Virus record (IMG/VR): IMGVR_UViG_3300020020_000024
Strand: one strand, 5' to 3'
Length of the DNA stretch: 64,000 nt
From: an uncultured virus (IMG/VR IMGVR_UViG_3300020020_000024)
Lineage: Duplodnaviria > Heunggongvirae > Uroviricota > Caudoviricetes
Made by a program: the position numbers and the translations under genes. The notes under the pieces are model-generated. The model was not told the origin of the DNA. It saw only the letters and a list, made by a program, of their open reading frames with translations, and ran no database searches. This document shows, piece by piece, positions 3,290 to 63,984 of the stretch (position 1 is its first letter; each line of letters begins with the position of its first letter).

Positions 3290-4369
3290 ATGAAAGAAAC
3301 TGAAAAATCCAATACTGAGAAAAACCAACAAGCCACTTCTTCTCCATCTGCGGCGGCTGGTTATAATCCAATGGGGGGAGATGTTTTTGTTCCCCCATAC
3401 GCTAAGCCTGAATCGCAATTCAATCAGGGAGAGTTGAACCAGGATATTCCAGAGCCAACTTATACCGCACCACCACGAGAATCGGGTATTCCTAACACAG
3501 AAGAAAAGCAGGAGAAGAAGCCTAAAGAGCCATACAATCCTGATATGGCAGATTTGCCAAAGGGTGAGCAAGATGATGCTGCGGAAAAAATGGCAAGGTA
3601 TCTTGTAGGATTATATGAGCAAATAAAATTGCAGGGTCGTGGTCTTATCAAGATAAGTGAACGCAAGGTCAATAAACTTGTCAATAACGGTGAGATTGAT
3701 CCATCCTTAATTGTTCCGGTTGGTATCGATGAACAAAAAACGCTTGGTGAGTTTTTCAATTTCTATAATGAACAATGTTCGCATCTATTTAAAACAACAG
3801 AAGATTTTAAAGAAGCGATCATCCCACCATTAACAAGAGAACTTGCAAAGCGTGGTCATGGTATTACCGATGCACAATTAATTTTATTCTTGTTGTTTCA
3901 GGATCTAGCATTAGCGATTCAGGAAGGCGTTAAAACAAGAATGGTGTTAACCGACATGCTAAGGTTTGCAAAAGAGCATACGCAAAATTCACGTCAGCCG
4001 GGAGCAGTACATACGCCGCCTCCACCACCCCCGCCGCCACAATCACCAGGGCCGCATCAATCAGAAACAATAGTGCAAGAACCTGCGATGACAGTAGCAG
4101 TTGCTTTACAAGATCAAATCCTTGCTAAGCATATCCCGATGGTTAATTCAGGTGATGGAATGCCTCAGTATGGTGGAGCAAGTAAACTGAGAAAATTAAA
4201 AACTGTTGCCAATCAGGAAAAAGATTCGATAAAGAAAGATAGAAAACGTGCATCAAAGGTTCTTGATGAAACCAGGGTAAGAATGCAATCAACAACGAAT
4301 GTTCCAGATGGTAAAAAAAGAAAAGCCGGCAGACCTGCTGGAAGTAAAAATAAATTTAAAAAACCTTAA
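3290..4369 (+). CDS. hypothetical protein, translationally coupled to packaging ATPase
   Basis: 359 aa with a helical core, poly-Pro tract and basic C-terminus. Its TAA overlaps the ATPase ATG. Confidence 0.7.
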   Translation: MKETEKSNTEKNQQATSSPSAAAGYNPMGGDVFVPPYAKPESQFNQGELNQDIPEPTYTAPPRESGIPNTEEKQEKKPKEPYNPDMADLPKGEQDDAAEKMARYLVGLYEQIKLQGRGLIKISERKVNKLVNNGEIDPSLIVPVGIDEQKTLGEFFNFYNEQCSHLFKTTEDFKEAIIPPLTRELAKRGHGITDAQLILFLLFQDLALAIQEGVKTRMVLTDMLRFAKEHTQNSRQPGAVHTPPPPPPPPQSPGPHQSETIVQEPAMTVAVALQDQILAKHIPMVNSGDGMPQYGGASKLRKLKTVANQEKDSIKKDRKRASKVLDETRVRMQSTTNVPDGKKRKAGRPAGSKNKFKKP

Positions 4370-5187
4370 TGGCACGGTATCCGATACTAATGGCGGTTTG
4401 TGGTAAGCGTCGTATTGGAAAATCGCACAAGACGACAGAGATCATGCGTGATTATGTGCGCAGGGGAAGAAAGGTTTTGATATTTGATGTCACCAATGAA
4501 TATTCGGATAAGTCGAAGTTTCCTGATATAAAAGCAATTGCTTTAAAAGATGTTCCATTATTTGCGGCGCAAACAAGAGCAGAGATCAGGCGTGTGGCCC
4601 CATTCTTTGATGATGGAAGAAAGATGACTCTTGATGATATGGTTAATGTGCTTAACTGGATTCTATCTGTTTACTTCAATGGACTTTTACTTGTGGAAGA
4701 TATTAACAAGTATATTGCAGATACGATGACTAAAGATGTAATGGGTGCTATGTGTACGCTTGCGCATCAGGGTGTTGATCTTATCATGCAATTCCAGTCA
4801 ATAGGTAGATTAACCACAAAGGTCTGGCAAAATATAAATGTGCTTCGTATGCACAAGAATACCGATAGCGTGGATCGTCACAGAGGTAAGTTTGAAGATA
4901 AGTATGAGTATTTAAAAGTTGCTGAGATACTGGTCAACGAAGAATATAGAACAGGTAACGTAAGATTTTTTCTTCATGTAAATTTTGATGATGAAAAAAT
5001 AATTGCTGACTTACCGGAAGAAAAAATTCGCAAAGGTATTGAGCAATACATGAGTGAGAATTATAGAACAGTAACTCAATTATCAGAGCGTAGAGATGGA
5101 AAAGGAAAGAGAATTTATAGTTATGAAGCAGCTTTTAAAACAGAGGTTGATCGCATTTACAATAACTATTTCAGACCAGCGGCTTAA
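4369..5187 (+). CDS. FtsK/HerA-superfamily (A32/P9-like) genome-packaging ATPase
   Basis: N-terminal Walker A GKRRIGKS, Walker B LLLVED, and AHQGVDLIMQFQS (H-x-G...hhhhQ motif). 272 aa, immediately upstream of the putative capsid gene. Confidence 0.8.
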   Translation: MARYPILMAVCGKRRIGKSHKTTEIMRDYVRRGRKVLIFDVTNEYSDKSKFPDIKAIALKDVPLFAAQTRAEIRRVAPFFDDGRKMTLDDMVNVLNWILSVYFNGLLLVEDINKYIADTMTKDVMGAMCTLAHQGVDLIMQFQSIGRLTTKVWQNINVLRMHKNTDSVDRHRGKFEDKYEYLKVAEILVNEEYRTGNVRFFLHVNFDDEKIIADLPEEKIRKGIEQYMSENYRTVTQLSERRDGKGKRIYSYEAAFKTEVDRIYNNYFRPAA

Positions 5188-5311
5188 CGACTGGCAAATA
5201 TATTATTTGCCACTAAGTATAAAGTATCAAAAAGCCCCTTTAAATTTATCCCTGAAATAAAAACCTACGTTGTCTGAGCAACGTAATAACTAACCCAAAA
5301 ATCCATTTATC

Positions 5312-5446
5312 ATGAAAGACGCAAAGACTTATCTCGTTATGCTTGCTGTTGGCACAGCTTCTACACTACTTGGCCTGTGGGCATACGACCAAATCAACAA
5401 AGCAAAAGTTGCTAAACCTGCAACGACTGCGACAGCCGCATCATAA
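5312..5446 (+). CDS. small membrane protein (44 aa; not in ORF track)
   Basis: MKDAKTYLVMLAVGTASTLLGLWAYDQINKAK...; preceded by an AAAATCCATTTATC leader. Confidence 0.7.
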   Translation: MKDAKTYLVMLAVGTASTLLGLWAYDQINKAKVAKPATTATAAS

Positions 5447-5514
5447 AAAAAGATCATTAAAGTTTTTTCGATATAAAATCCAATCTCTTATTTTTTAACC
5501 AAAAATCCAATGTC

Positions 5515-6192
5515 ATGAATAAGGTACAACAGTACATCAATCGTGCAAGAGGTAATTCAAGTAACCAGCACTTGAACTTCGTGAACGATCAAAAAAGTTT
5601 TATCATGCAGCCGAACCTATACGCTAATGGCGCAGGTGCTGGCCCCGCTGCTCCCGTAAAAAAATCAATGCCGTATGCGGTCGTGGTGTCTAGTGCATCA
5701 GGCTCGGCAGTAACTGATTTTGATGTTCTCGGTGCATACGAGTACATCAACAACTCCGGCTTTACTGCTGCGGGTTCACTGGTGATCGGATCAATTACGA
5801 TCAGTTCAGCGATCCCTGGCGTAAGCTACCGTGAGTTGCTGTATCAAACACAGAACAATCCGTTCATGGTGGGTCAGACTTATCTGGCTTGTTCTTCACC
5901 AACAGCCCAAGTGCTGGAAGTGTTCACCATCATCACCAAAGATGCGAACGGTACGCAGGTAAGGATACCTATCGTTCCTGCGGTTGACCCTTATCAGCAA
6001 CAAGATGGTGTGAATGTTGTTGAGCAGGAATATAATATTGATGGTTTCACGAAGCTGACTTTCGCCCGTATTCTTGCGAATGCGGTAGTGACTATCAGGT
6101 TCTACCCATCAGTTAAAATTAATCCTGCCAATCCATTGGCTGGTAAGCCTGACACGGCTGCTTACGGTAACCCTGGTGTTATTCGTCAGTAA
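5515..6192 (+). CDS. putative major capsid protein (beta-rich, single jelly-roll size)
   Basis: Follows the packaging ATPase, is non-membrane and beta-strand rich, is followed by a strong terminator, and has two paralogues in the window. The fold is inferred. Confidence 0.6.
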   Translation: MNKVQQYINRARGNSSNQHLNFVNDQKSFIMQPNLYANGAGAGPAAPVKKSMPYAVVVSSASGSAVTDFDVLGAYEYINNSGFTAAGSLVIGSITISSAIPGVSYRELLYQTQNNPFMVGQTYLACSSPTAQVLEVFTIITKDANGTQVRIPIVPAVDPYQQQDGVNVVEQEYNIDGFTKLTFARILANAVVTIRFYPSVKINPANPLAGKPDTAAYGNPGVIRQ

Positions 6193-61076: not shown

Positions 61077-61346
61077 ATGAGAAAGTTTATAGCATCAGCA
61101 ATTTTGCTATCCCTTTTCTCAGTAGCGATGGTGGGCAATTGTTTTGCTTATAGTTTTTCGGTTGAAAAAGTATTGGTAATAAAAAAGCAGATTACTGCTG
61201 AGGCAATCGCTGAACCAATGTTTTTCTATACAAAGCCGATGAACAAGCACGAACAAAGGAAGTACCATCTTGCAGCCGGAGTAAACCAAAGGGTTGAAAC
61301 TCGCTGCAACAGTCCTACTGAAAGGCATTTGCAAAATTCATATTAA
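61077..61346 (+). CDS. small secreted protein
   Basis: Signal peptide; followed by a hairpin at about 61374-61403. Confidence 0.5.
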   Translation: MRKFIASAILLSLFSVAMVGNCFAYSFSVEKVLVIKKQITAEAIAEPMFFYTKPMNKHEQRKYHLAAGVNQRVETRCNSPTERHLQNSY

Positions 61347-61429
61347 AAAAATGTAGTAAAGAAAAAACAACTGATCCCTGCTTACCTGCGGGGATTTGTT
61401 TTTATTGATTATCCGAAATTAATTTTCCC

Positions 61430-61437
61430 TACATTTG
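61430..61437 (+). promoter_or_regulatory. Bacteroidota -7 element TACATTTG
   Basis: 27 nt upstream of the methyltransferase ATG. Confidence 0.6.
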
Positions 61438-61464
61438 AAACCGACATAAATACCACCTTCGTTC

Positions 61465-63984
61465 ATGATTAAGATACTGCACGGTAAAATGGAAATCAGA
61501 CTAAAAGAATTTCCAGATAATTATTTTGATAGTGTTGTTACAGATTCTCCGTATGGTCTCGGTGAAGAACCAAATGTAATTGAAGTATTAAGAGACTGGC
61601 TCGATCATGGTTATCACGAAGTAAAAAATAACGGTGGATTCATGAATGCTGAGTGGGATAAATTTGTTCCGCAACCAAACGCATGGAAAGAAGTTTACAG
61701 AGTGCTTAAACCAGGTGGCCACTTAGTTACGTTCGCAGGCACACGGACATATGATTGGATGGTTATGAGTTTGAGGATCGCAGGATTTGAAATAAGAGAT
61801 CAGTTGGATTGGTTGTATGGATGTTTAAGTAATGATACGGAAGTGCTTACTGAAAAAGGATGGATTTCTTATAAAAATCTTAACACAATTGACTATGATA
61901 AGATAATGTGTTATGATATTTTGGACGACAGTATCCATTTTGAAAGACCACAAAAATGGAATGAATACCAAATCAAAGATACCTGTTACCGAATACAATC
62001 TGATAGTACAGACCAAATCGTCACCAGAAATCATCGTTGCCTTATTGAACGAAAAGGAAAGCTATTATTTGAGTTTGCTGAGAAAGCCGCACGGGAACAA
62101 CAAGCGAATATACCCATTCTGGAAAGCATGTCGTGTTTGCGGGAAACCTTTTATGACTCATACCAAAGAACAAGCAAGCAGAAACAAATGTTGTTCAAGG
62201 AAATGCCAGACAGCAATTTTAATAAACCGGAGAAAACGTGCAGTAAAATATTTAATAGAGAAAAAATGCGCTGTTTGTGGGGAAAGATACAAAGCAAGAC
62301 AAGACAGGGAATCAAAATATTGTTCTGCAACATGCAATGGAAAAGTACAAGCATTGGGCTTAATAAAACATTCTCACAAGGGTCATTTGAGTTGGACAAA
62401 AGAAACAAAGTTGAAATTCAAGAAAAGAATGAAGGGGGCTTCAAATCCATCTTGGAAAGGGGGCGTAACATATCGAAACAGGAAAGGTGTTTACCGTCAA
62501 TGGAAGATAAAATATATAAAGTGTCCAGTAGAATACGCATCAATGAGCAGGAAAGACGGGTATATAACGGAGTACAGATTGAAAGTGGCGCAACAACTAC
62601 GACGAGTATTAACAAGAATAGAGGTTGTTCATCATATAGATCACAATCCAGAGAACAACGATATAGCGAATCTGATGTTATTCAAAAACAATGCAGATCA
62701 CAAGAAATACGAAGCGGGGTACGATATAAAACCACTCTGGCAACCATCACTCCATTTGAATATAGCGGCATAGTTTTTTGTCCTACTGTATCTACTGGTG
62801 CTTTTGTAGCAAGAAGAAATGGAATGATTTTTATAACCGGAAATTCAGGATTTCCAAAATCACTCAACGTAAGTAAAGCTATTGATGCAAAATTCGGTGC
62901 TGAAAGAGAAGTGATCGGTAAAAGAAAACATCCTACTTTAAAAAATCCGGAAAAAATAATGGAAAGTAAAAGTGCTGTTCATACGCTTGCTGATACTTGG
63001 CAACGTGAATGGCCTATTACTGCAGCCGCCACAGATGAAGCAAAGAAATGGCAGGGATGGGGAACGGCATTGAAGCCCGGGCACGAACCGATATGTCTTG
63101 CAAGAAAACCATTATCAGAAAAAAACATTGCTGAAAATATTTTGAAATGGGGAACAGGCGCTATCAATATTGATGAAAGTAGAATCGGATTTGCAGATGA
63201 TGAAGATAAGGATAGTGCAGTATGGGGCAGAGGCACTGATATTGGTGGTGGAAATTTTGTTGGTTCTACTAAGTCATCAGGCAAAACAAATGTAGAACCT
63301 AATAAAGCAGGGCGATGGCCGGCAAATGTGATTCTTAGTCATCATCAAAATTGTGTTGATGAAATTCAAGAATGGAAATGCGTTGATGATTGTCCGATTA
63401 AAATTCTTAATGATCAAGCACCATCTACTGGCGCTGTTTCAATGATCAAAAAAGGCAGCTACGGTGTGAGCCAAAACACATACAACGATTACGCATACAA
63501 AGGTGATGATGGAAGAACATTCAGGGGTGATATTACCGGGGCCAGCAGATTCTTTTATTGTGCGAAGGCAGATACACAGGAAAGGAATATGGGGCTTGAT
63601 AAAGACAAGTATAAAAAAATAATCAATCATGGCATTCATGATACTTGTGAAATATGCGGAGGAAGAATATTCCAGGCCCAGGGTTTTCCTGGAACTTGTA
63701 TTTGTGATGAACCAACAAGGCAAGGGAAAATAGTTAAAGGGAATTTTCATCCAACTGTAAAGCCTGTTGCCCTCATGCAATGGTTAGTAAATTTAATAAC
63801 TCCTATCAACGGAAAAGTTCTCGATCCGTTTAATGGAACTGGTTCAACCGGGATCGCTTGTAAGATTGATGATTTTGAATATATAGGGATTGAACAAGAA
63901 AAAGTTTTCTGTGATATCAGCGTGGATAGAATAAATGGCTGGATATATCAAAAAAAGAATTTAGTAGGTGATATGTTTGATTAA
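61465..63984 (+). CDS. N4/N6 DNA methyltransferase containing an intein
   Basis: VTDSPYG, LKPGGHL, WLYG|SGFPKS, ALKPGHEPI, HPTVKP, VLDPFNGTGSTG. Confidence 0.9.
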   Translation: MIKILHGKMEIRLKEFPDNYFDSVVTDSPYGLGEEPNVIEVLRDWLDHGYHEVKNNGGFMNAEWDKFVPQPNAWKEVYRVLKPGGHLVTFAGTRTYDWMVMSLRIAGFEIRDQLDWLYGCLSNDTEVLTEKGWISYKNLNTIDYDKIMCYDILDDSIHFERPQKWNEYQIKDTCYRIQSDSTDQIVTRNHRCLIERKGKLLFEFAEKAAREQQANIPILESMSCLRETFYDSYQRTSKQKQMLFKEMPDSNFNKPEKTCSKIFNREKMRCLWGKIQSKTRQGIKILFCNMQWKSTSIGLNKTFSQGSFELDKRNKVEIQEKNEGGFKSILERGRNISKQERCLPSMEDKIYKVSSRIRINEQERRVYNGVQIESGATTTTSINKNRGCSSYRSQSREQRYSESDVIQKQCRSQEIRSGVRYKTTLATITPFEYSGIVFCPTVSTGAFVARRNGMIFITGNSGFPKSLNVSKAIDAKFGAEREVIGKRKHPTLKNPEKIMESKSAVHTLADTWQREWPITAAATDEAKKWQGWGTALKPGHEPICLARKPLSEKNIAENILKWGTGAINIDESRIGFADDEDKDSAVWGRGTDIGGGNFVGSTKSSGKTNVEPNKAGRWPANVILSHHQNCVDEIQEWKCVDDCPIKILNDQAPSTGAVSMIKKGSYGVSQNTYNDYAYKGDDGRTFRGDITGASRFFYCAKADTQERNMGLDKDKYKKIINHGIHDTCEICGGRIFQAQGFPGTCICDEPTRQGKIVKGNFHPTVKPVALMQWLVNLITPINGKVLDPFNGTGSTGIACKIDDFEYIGIEQEKVFCDISVDRINGWIYQKKNLVGDMFD
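61822..62844 (+). mobile_element. intein (341 aa)
   Basis: Block A CLSNDTEVLTEKGW, block B VTRNHR, blocks F/G YSGIVFCPTV...FITGN followed by Ser+1. Removal restores WLYGSGFPKS. Confidence 0.92.
61913..62773 (+). CDS. HNH homing endonuclease with Zn-ribbon repeats, +1 frame inside intein
   Basis: CRVCGKPF..CCSRKC, CAVCG..YCSATC, NPSWKGG, GYITEYRL, EVVHHIDHNPENNDIANL. Confidence 0.85.
   Translation: MIFWTTVSILKDHKNGMNTKSKIPVTEYNLIVQTKSSPEIIVALLNEKESYYLSLLRKPHGNNKRIYPFWKACRVCGKPFMTHTKEQASRNKCCSRKCQTAILINRRKRAVKYLIEKKCAVCGERYKARQDRESKYCSATCNGKVQALGLIKHSHKGHLSWTKETKLKFKKRMKGASNPSWKGGVTYRNRKGVYRQWKIKYIKCPVEYASMSRKDGYITEYRLKVAQQLRRVLTRIEVVHHIDHNPENNDIANLMLFKNNADHKKYEAGYDIKPLWQPSLHLNIAA

Follow-up and report, generated by a model that had tools for sequence, protein, structure and literature searches.

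An intein in a phage DNA methyltransferase gene with a probable homing endonuclease encoded in the overlapping +1 reading frame

Organization of the locus

We have analyzed a stretch of 64,000 nucleotides from an uncultured virus of the Caudoviricetes (IMG/VR record IMGVR_UViG_3300020020_000024), hereafter called the window, in which a DNA methyltransferase (methylase) gene is interrupted by an intein, and the intein in turn overlaps an HNH endonuclease gene in another reading frame. The window is phage-like, has a GC content of 37%, and carries the methylase open reading frame (ORF) at its right end. This ORF (61465–63984; like all features described here, on the plus strand) encodes an N6/N4 DNA methyltransferase precursor of 839 residues, or 498 residues once the intein of 341 residues is removed, and it matches PF01555 (E = 1.3e-24) and phrog_67 (E = 8.9e-46). 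The methylase profile match is split by the 341-residue insert, which lies between ...DWLYG and SGFPKS...

The N-extein (61465–61821, 119 residues) ends in ...DWLYG, and the Gly before the first residue of the intein, Cys1, was found in 105 of 108 loci of the family described below. The intein itself, read in the methylase's own frame (frame 0), extends from Cys1 to Asn341 (61822–62844) and was assigned from its conserved splice residues, its profile match to solved inteins and a HINT fold detected at Z 20.0. At the 5' junction the sequence ...TGG TTG TAT GGA is followed by TGT, the Cys codon at 61822, and at the 3' junction ...ACC GGA AAT, whose last codon encodes the Asn (62842–62844), is followed by TCA GGA TTT CCA AAA TCA. 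The C-extein (62845–63984, 379 residues and the stop codon) begins with SGFPKS and was delimited by the junction sequence, the methylase match and uninterrupted relatives. Considering that YGSGFPKS occurs uninterrupted in related methylases, insert-free alleles of the host site exist.

Three parts can be distinguished in the intein, namely an N-terminal splicing lobe (residues 1–100, 61822–62121), a linker that is read through in frame 0 (residues ~101–300, 62122–62721) and a C-terminal splicing lobe ending in ...FITGN (residues 301–341, 62722–62844). Overlapping them is an ORF of 286 residues (61913–62773), which is offset by 448 nucleotides from the methylase ORF and therefore lies in the +1 frame. 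Counted from ATG 61961, it gives an HNH endonuclease gene of 270 codons (61961–62773); the frame is open from 61907, and ATG 61913 is an alternative start. The 270-residue protein contains two Cys4 zinc-ribbon-like motifs (62129–62335), an NPSWKGG motif (62444–62464) and an HNH catalytic core of the form HH...N...N...H (residues 224–251, 62630–62713). The stretch from 61961 to 62100 is probably constrained in both frames; read in frame 0 it specifies the block B region of the intein, and read in +1 the helices at the N-terminus of the HNH protein. Annotation of the window requires two gene calls and one intein feature.

The frame-0 product is a predicted intein

The residues expected at the splice sites were strongly conserved. 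Cys1 (61822–61824 in the window) was present in all 108 aligned loci, and so was the block B His, which lies in the motif TRNH in the window; the first residue of this motif was Ser in 95 loci and Thr in 13. All 105 aligned rows that reach the end of the intein (three are cut off before it) had a terminal Gly-Asn, followed by Ser in 104 rows and Thr in one. The residues C320, G326, F328, T339, G340 and N341 are invariant in the intein family.

A profile built from 100 inserts matched the solved inteins 6zgq (E = 4.8e-8), 9hth (0.0029) and 7cfv (0.031). An AlphaFold2 model based on a 100-sequence alignment showed two well-predicted lobes, with a predicted local distance difference test score (pLDDT) of 81–98 for residues 1–100 and 82–96 for residues 301–341, while residues 115–270 stayed below 50. 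When the model was compared with 48,161 chains using VIA-align, the top match was 6zgq_B (Z 20.0, root-mean-square deviation (rmsd) 1.9, 142 aligned residues, 22% identity), and the 31 chains at Z ≥8 were inteins or other HINT-type domains. An Rfam search of 61300–63200 at E values up to 1 returned one snoRNA row at chance level and no intron family. The frame-0 product is thus modelled as a HINT splicing domain built around a disordered linker of about 200 residues.

The closest solved relative, both by profile and by fold, is the AceL NrdHF class 3 split intein (6zgq), which has no endonuclease, whereas the intein of the window carries the +1 HNH gene. We also compared the C-terminal part (residues 320–341, 62779–62844) with the hallmarks commonly attributed to class 3 inteins. 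It has the invariant C320 and a Thr-Gly-Asn end, and the nearest solved relative is of class 3. The hallmarks are only partly present, however, in that Cys1 is kept and no invariant Trp is found in the block B region. These features hint that splicing may follow a route like that of class 3 inteins.

The +1 product is a predicted HNH protein

The +1 product matched phrog_1271 (E = 2.2e-16), and eight of the ten other PHROG families that it matched are also annotated as HNH. PF13392 (HNH_3) matched at the catalytic core with an E value of 8.9e-6 and 25.7 bits against a cut-off of 24.8. In an alignment of 100 sequences, H224, H225, N233, N237, N244 and H247 were invariant. The Cys residues of the two Cys4 clusters (C57, C60, C78 and C82; C103, C106, C121 and C125) were invariant or at least 90% conserved, and NPxWKGG, represented in the window by N162, P163, W165, K166, G167 and G168, was invariant or nearly so. 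The structural model had a mean pLDDT of 90.9, with residues 1–40 at 86–98. In this model, the +1 product is confidently folded.

Both reading frames are kept open

The +1 frame is free of stops from 61907 to 62770, while it contains 37 stops in the remainder of the methylase gene; frame +2 has 105. To judge frame 0 in the overlap, the HNH protein was held constant, its synonymous codons were shuffled and the frame-0 stops were counted. On the one hand, 18.5 ± 2.8 stops were expected when the ORF's own codons were used; on the other hand, 32.2 ± 4.0 were expected with the codon usage of the window. The observed number is zero, which was reached by none of 20,000 synonymous shuffles of the HNH codons of the window. 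The avoidance is visible at single junctions, since T as the third base preceding a codon that begins with AA, AG or GA was found at 0 of 95 junctions, compared with 58 of 190 elsewhere.

A frame-shifted domain has, a priori, its commonest cause in an error of sequencing or assembly. In this case, two compensating indels would have displaced the ordinary in-frame HNH domain of a canonical intein, and in one related contig, L255, the frame is indeed broken toward the end of the HNH region. A displaced in-frame domain would leave frame 0 unselected in the middle, so that it would be full of stops. We therefore compared the window with assembled Logan contigs, on which this check rests. Those from the probable source sample (X1, X2) were identical to the window across 61400–63000. 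Those from another sample in another study (X3, X4) showed no differences and no gaps over 61762–62505, 62228–62378 and 62517–62797, which takes in both points where the frame switches. Because frame 0 lacks stops where 18–32 are expected and the contigs of the second study are identical, the paired-indel artefact is excluded. The same is indicated by the relatives, as the HNH gene lay in +1 in 111 of 111 unique loci having both intein halves and in frame in none. We give this explanation next to no chance.

These results bear out most of the initial annotation, which had been made from the sequence of the window. It had proposed a Cys...Asn/Ser intein in the methylase, now supported by the junctions, the invariant splice residues and the HINT fold. 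It had seen no recognizable domain in the central frame-0 residues, in agreement with the missing Pfam and PHROG matches and the pLDDT below 50 at residues 115–270, and an HNH nuclease in +1 (61913–62773), in agreement with the phrog_1271 and PF13392 matches and the invariant catalytic residues. Its claim that both frames are stop-free over the overlap holds beyond chance, and the reads-based check for paired indels that it had called for found its counterpart in the matching contigs of the second sample.

A family of loci with the same layout

Searches of viral and metagenome contigs, made first with the HNH protein of the window and afterwards with three aligned HNH proteins, yielded 164 loci; the alignment scans covered the best 80 of 107 and the best 80 of 119 relatives. 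Frame relations were determined by tblastn of the parts of the window against all loci, giving 165 sources including the window. In 139 of the 165 sources the HNH gene was +1 to both intein halves; a further 8 had a single half, to which it was again +1, and 18 had no intein match. It was in frame 0 in none. After removal of duplicates, 135 unique loci remained, including the 111 with both intein halves. HNH identities ranged from 36 to 54% across the family.

Under translation table 11, 109 of the 111 loci have an uninterrupted frame 0 across the intein. The remaining two, L126 and L149, are open in both frames under table 25, in which TGA encodes Gly. All of their frame-0 "stops" are TGA, several of them at Gly residues conserved in the family, such as the one that precedes Cys1 and those in ...PTGAFVARRNGK... 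In the overlap, frame 0 of L126 and L149 contains 10 and 14 TGA codons, respectively, and no TAA or TAG, where 13.2 and 16.2 were expected; none of 5,000 shuffles was free of TAA and TAG. Frame 0 of these two loci avoids TAA and TAG while tolerating TGA. Stop avoidance thus tracks the code that each locus uses, as is to be expected if ribosomes translate through frame 0.

Both loci (L126, 1467–2640; L149, 728–1933) are metagenome contigs, and table 25 is the code of SR1/Gracilibacteria. The displayed stretches have 13 and 19 TGA codons in frame 0 and 16–17 in the HNH frame. On a quick tree, L126 and L149 are the nearest HNH relatives of the window (support 91), which itself uses the standard code.

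The pooled tests used 108 loci, selected because frame 0 was open and the +1 ORF was closed, with GC contents of 0.34–0.63. No frame-0 stops were found in this set, compared with a mean of 12.1 expected per locus, and T occurred at 0 of 8,087 at-risk junctions versus 4,902 of 19,148 elsewhere.

The layout was also recovered from the intein side. In a scan seeded with the intein pattern, 76 of 78 relatives had a +1 HNH (the best 78 of 164 relatives, with many contigs already in the HNH-seeded set). A scan of one genome per species added 14 intein-type copies, one of them in the isolate genome L249, and prophage-like copies occur in bins assigned to many phyla as well as in this isolate. When the HNH protein of the window was compared by tblastn with 50,697 phage records at E ≤1e-8, the sole match was one uncultured phage.

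In the locus L001 (2550–5711, on the same contig as L018, L087 and L171), the intein-bearing methylase gene is also split. Its ORF ends at 4256, a second, free-standing HNH-like ORF follows at 4247–4720, and the C-terminal part of the methylase is a separate ORF at 4692–5711. This arrangement could be a fractured gene or an intron.

Selection acts on different frames along the element

Nucleotide diversity was calculated by codon position for about 108 loci, and the outcome was the same whether they were aligned in frame 0 or in +1. Frame-0 third positions were the most variable up to ~62090–62107, that is, over nearly all of the N-terminal lobe. From ~62100 to ~62737 the +1 third positions took over, and position 1 of frame 0 was the most variable frame-0 position between 62107 and 62736. 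Beyond ~62737, in the C-terminal lobe, the wobble of frame 0 returned. Third-position diversity in the overlap thus points to purifying selection on the endonuclease frame. The linker (62122–62721) is kept stop-free and bears no sign of selection on a frame-0 protein.

Between ~61970 and ~62060, all three codon positions showed low diversity, and frame-0 position 3 fell to 0.29–0.38, compared with 0.55–0.67 in the other splicing blocks and the exteins. This stretch encodes block B in frame 0 and the segment IPxTEYNQIxQTKSSPETIVALLNE in +1, which is modelled as two helices with pLDDT 86–98; conservation imposed by frame 0 could itself raise the confidence of this N-terminal model. We consider that both frames are probably constrained over ~61961–62100.

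It could be argued that the middle of frame 0 forms a functional domain as well, in which case there would be true double protein coding over all 860 nucleotides. Frame 0 is open in every locus, and some columns in the middle, such as P98, E212 and Q294, are invariant. These columns, however, sit under invariant motifs of the +1 protein, the pLDDT remained below 50 at residues 115–270 despite the 100-sequence alignment, and the high variability of frame-0 position 1 between 62107 and 62736 indicates that selection follows +1. We rejected such a domain on the low pLDDT and the course of the diversity, and regard it as very improbable.

Translation of the nuclease

In 70 of the 108 loci, an ATG lies four codons before a conserved Ile-Pro of the +1 protein, and in 79 of 108 one lies within 1–8 codons; other loci have an ATG at −18 (14 loci) or −23 (6 loci). 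In the window, ATG 61961 and ATG 61913 are at −6 and −22 codons, respectively. Among the 70 loci with the −4 ATG, 40 have GGAG, GAGG or AGGA at −17 to −6, compared with a baseline of 10.5% in the same ORFs, and none of 200,000 simulations reached 40 of these Shine-Dalgarno-like motifs. The frame-0 residues over the motif vary (RS, EE, QE and others), and because they differ, the motif itself appears to be kept.

In the window, GGAG, GAGG or AGGA precedes 2 of 54 starts of ORFs of at least 150 residues, and the upstream regions are A-rich. Its host is probably not reliant on Shine-Dalgarno sites, which would fit a host of the Bacteroidota type.

A different route to the nuclease would be programmed ribosomal frameshifting without an independent start. 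The product would then be a fusion of N-extein, N-terminal intein lobe and HNH protein, or a canonical intein if a second shift led back to frame 0. In many loci the open +1 frame extends beyond the ATG in the upstream direction, as far as 48 codons ahead of Ile-Pro, and both the few loci that have no upstream in-frame ATG and the window, with no Shine-Dalgarno motif at its own candidate starts, would suit this route. On the other side are the conserved ATG and the enriched motif at the right spacing. Survival of the methylase would take two efficient shifts, and no conserved slippery or stop-stimulated site was noticed in the alignments, in which no systematic search for one was made. Frameshifting is therefore improbable in our view, and independent internal initiation is the best-supported and likely route according to the sequence comparison.

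The initial annotation had left this choice open, proposing a separate nuclease protein started at ATG 61961 or at a TTG near 62075, or else reached by a frameshift. The conserved ATG, the enriched motif and the confident +1 fold favor the separate protein, and ATG 61961 aligns with the start region conserved in the relatives. The TTG is an unlikely start, considering that constraint on +1 begins at ~61970 and that the folded N-terminus is encoded there. A frameshift is not needed, since relatives in Shine-Dalgarno-using hosts carry the motif before the conserved ATG.

A probable mobile intein with a separate gene for its putative homing endonuclease

We consider it probable that the element is a mobile intein in a phage N6/N4 methylase whose homing endonuclease is a separate HNH gene overprinted in +1. 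This reading rests directly on the dual coding and how it is conserved, on the folds and on the selection specific to each frame, and from these we infer splicing activity, the start site, nuclease activity and homing. Ribosomes in frame 0 would produce the 839-residue precursor, from which the two HINT lobes, joined by the disordered linker, would splice themselves out at YG/C...GN/SGFPKS to leave the methylase of 498 residues. Ribosomes starting inside the gene, presumably at ATG 61961, would read +1 and produce the 270-residue protein with its predicted N-terminal helical segment, two zinc ribbons and HNH core. This nuclease would cut intein-free methylase alleles, and repair would then copy the whole element into them. 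Selection would act in three modes, on frame 0 at the ends, on +1 in the middle with frame 0 kept stop-free, and probably on both frames at ~61961–62100.

Variants of the element are as expected for a homing cycle, judging by their sequences. The +1 ORF is cut short while frame 0 is still open in L133, L153 and L162. L231 (1501–2097) has an intein of 199 residues, in which the +1 ORF keeps the zinc ribbons and has lost the catalytic part. L242 (1501–1932) is a mini-intein of 144 residues at the same site, without an HNH ORF and with one in-frame TAA at codon 7.

Several observations weigh against a mobile intein with its own +1 nuclease gene. With regard to the intein, the penultimate residue is Gly in 105 of 105 rows and not the usual His; a penultimate His is common in inteins and not universal, and inteins without it are known. 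In single-sequence searches, the frame-0 insert of the window matched no Pfam or PHROG family and reached only E = 0.029 (15.3 bits, under the cut-off of 24.5) against TIGR01445, so that its identity as an intein was settled by profile and fold. With regard to the nuclease, the best solved match of the HNH model was a weak one to I-HmuI (1u3e_M; Z 5.2, rmsd 3.9, 75 aligned residues, within residues 166–255), I-PpoI scored Z 4.0, and a Foldseek search of the whole multi-domain model against the PDB gave no match at E ≤0.001. With regard to the start, an in-frame ATG upstream of Ile-Pro is missing altogether from 6 of the 108 loci, and in 29 there is no such ATG within 12 codons. The Shine-Dalgarno count covers related loci and not independent events, and the Tyr codon TAT, which creates the ATG, is mildly enriched (72 TAT and 26 TAC, on a baseline of 59% T). 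In the window, neither ATG 61961 nor ATG 61913 is preceded by a Shine-Dalgarno motif, and the putative start at ATG 61961 is placed by homology. Finally, L255 (1–760) is the sole exception to the +1 rule. This contig is cut inside the HNH region, and its usual carrier frame runs into a stop shortly upstream of the C-terminal intein lobe, whose frame is a different one. Possible explanations are an assembly error, a pseudogene and a one-base indel.

A further alternative is that the +1 HNH protein is no longer a homing enzyme, having been adopted by the phage as a packaging-associated or methylase-partner nuclease, or that it is an inactive relic in the window. The layout is widespread and old, as the HNH identities of 36–54% indicate, which is unusual for a purely selfish element, and other roles of phage HNH proteins are mentioned in section 4.2 of a study on mycobacteriophage methylases (Arsenault et al., PMC11855218). 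In contrast, none of the catalytic His and Asn residues varies among 100 sequences, the element is located precisely at a conserved position in the host gene, of which intein-free alleles exist, and the decayed, deleted and HNH-free versions fit a homing cycle. We accordingly judge a non-homing role to be improbable, and the homing enzyme remains our preferred reading of the +1 protein.

Relation to known systems

The following comparisons draw on the accessible parts of the publications cited. The initial annotation had presented the layout as an unusual dual-coding selfish element; out-of-frame intein endonucleases and hidden HNH genes in methylases are already in print, and the layout itself is no longer a surprise. 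A study of actinobacteriophages describes inteins that carry their endonuclease in a different frame or on the opposite strand, and its authors propose the invasion of an intein by a free-standing endonuclease gene (10.1101/2025.01.02.630785). Like the element of the window, these non-canonical inteins have a splicing domain, a same-strand, out-of-frame endonuclease ORF in the usual region and an open intein frame. They differ in the enzyme, since the out-of-frame one is endonuclease VII-like and in frame 3, with HNH enzymes described in frame only, whereas the window has an HNH in +1. They also differ in the host genes, which are those for DNA polymerase, minor capsid protein, terminase and thymidylate synthase instead of a PF01555 methylase. 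Unlike the actinobacteriophage set, the family of the window occurs in environmental phages of many host phyla.

The cyanobacterial DnaX intein, treated in a 2026 preprint, is likewise overlapped by an endonuclease ORF. Credit is given there to Gorbalenya 1998, a work that the 2025 preprint also cites for out-of-frame intein endonucleases. As in the window, the endonuclease frame of the DnaX intein is under purifying selection and the intein frame is relaxed in the overlap; likewise, in the portion of that preprint available, no in-frame relatives are known and mini-intein relatives exist. The DnaX element, however, has a +2 ORF with LAGLIDADG motifs in the cellular dnaX gene, whereas that of the window is a +1 HNH gene in a phage methylase.

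The ShiLan domain, too, lies in methylases, those of mycobacteriophages. It has an out-of-frame HNH and no splicing domain, and the methylase frame reads straight through it (Arsenault, Gosselin, Gogarten, Genes 2025, PMC11855218). According to the same study, its HNH is in the third frame with a GTG start and no detectable ribosome-binding site, and the domain is thought to stay as a loop of the methylase. One further phage of the ShiLan type is named in a genome announcement. The ShiLan arrangement shares with the window a methylase host, an HNH that has zinc fingers and lies out of frame, and a host frame in which stops are avoided. The insert of the window has a full HINT domain and is therefore not a ShiLan domain. 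Work from 1997 reportedly described an intein with an HNH homing enzyme in phage genes. There, the HNH is said to be part of the intein polypeptide, whereas the HNH of the window would be a separate translation product.

The HNH of L069, one of the intein-less relatives described below, matched methyltransferase-annotated DNA of the phages Mantra, Starcevich, Filuzino, Pollywog and others at 34–35% identity (E = 2e-7 to 8e-6), and Mantra and Starcevich are among the phages named in PMC11855218. By sequence, the HNH of the window falls within one broad family with the ShiLan-type HNH, as a distant relative.

In the literature we found no account of an intein with an out-of-frame HNH or of this methylase intein family, although the supplements of the preprints may hold cases. 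Because gene callers give only the long methylase ORF, such endonucleases go unseen and their inteins are mistaken for decaying or mini-inteins, and a similar point on overlooked endonucleases is made in 10.1101/2025.01.02.630785. How hidden endonucleases are translated was left open in PMC11855218, as far as its accessible text goes, and the conserved internal ATG with its Shine-Dalgarno-like motif offers a concrete, testable answer. Stop avoidance that follows the genetic code, with TGA tolerated only in the two loci where it encodes Gly, apparently goes beyond the published accounts in their accessible parts. Owing to its size (111 unique intein loci), the control provided by the genetic code, the conserved start signal and the doubly constrained stretch, the family is a good experimental system.

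Intein-less relatives

HNH relatives without an intein (~38–47% identity) were observed in the same methylase family, again in +1 and with the methylase frame reading through. They were found on viral contigs (L066, L068, L069, L072, L074–L079, L081 and L082) and on genome contigs (L256, L257, L260–L263, L265 and L266). The insert is preceded by an intact YGSGFPKSxNxxKxxD and lies downstream of the intein site, at a distance of about 15 codons. Read in frame 0, five of the six intein-less inserts displayed have CxC at their start and CxxC at their end. The arrangement is like that of ShiLan.

A quick tree of 139 HNH sequences places the loop type inside the intein type at three points, and the well-supported branches force at least two changes. 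A tentative interpretation, to which we give less than even weight, is that the HNH gene itself, and not the intein, is the mobile unit. It may ride in +1 both in a splicing carrier, the intein, and in a non-splicing one, the read-through loop, and in the intein it may also have gained an N-terminal helical segment over the block B coding region, with constraint then falling on both frames. If this is true, the family would provide a living series for an order in which splicing came first and the endonuclease invaded later, and a structured protein segment would have been born by overprinting.

A third arrangement was seen in L259 (1182–3268), a Curtobacterium plasmid record, where an uninterrupted methylase gene of this family is directly followed by a free-standing HNH relative. 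A similar case is that of the phages Tiff81 and Sashimi, whose upstream HNH genes are described in PMC11855218.

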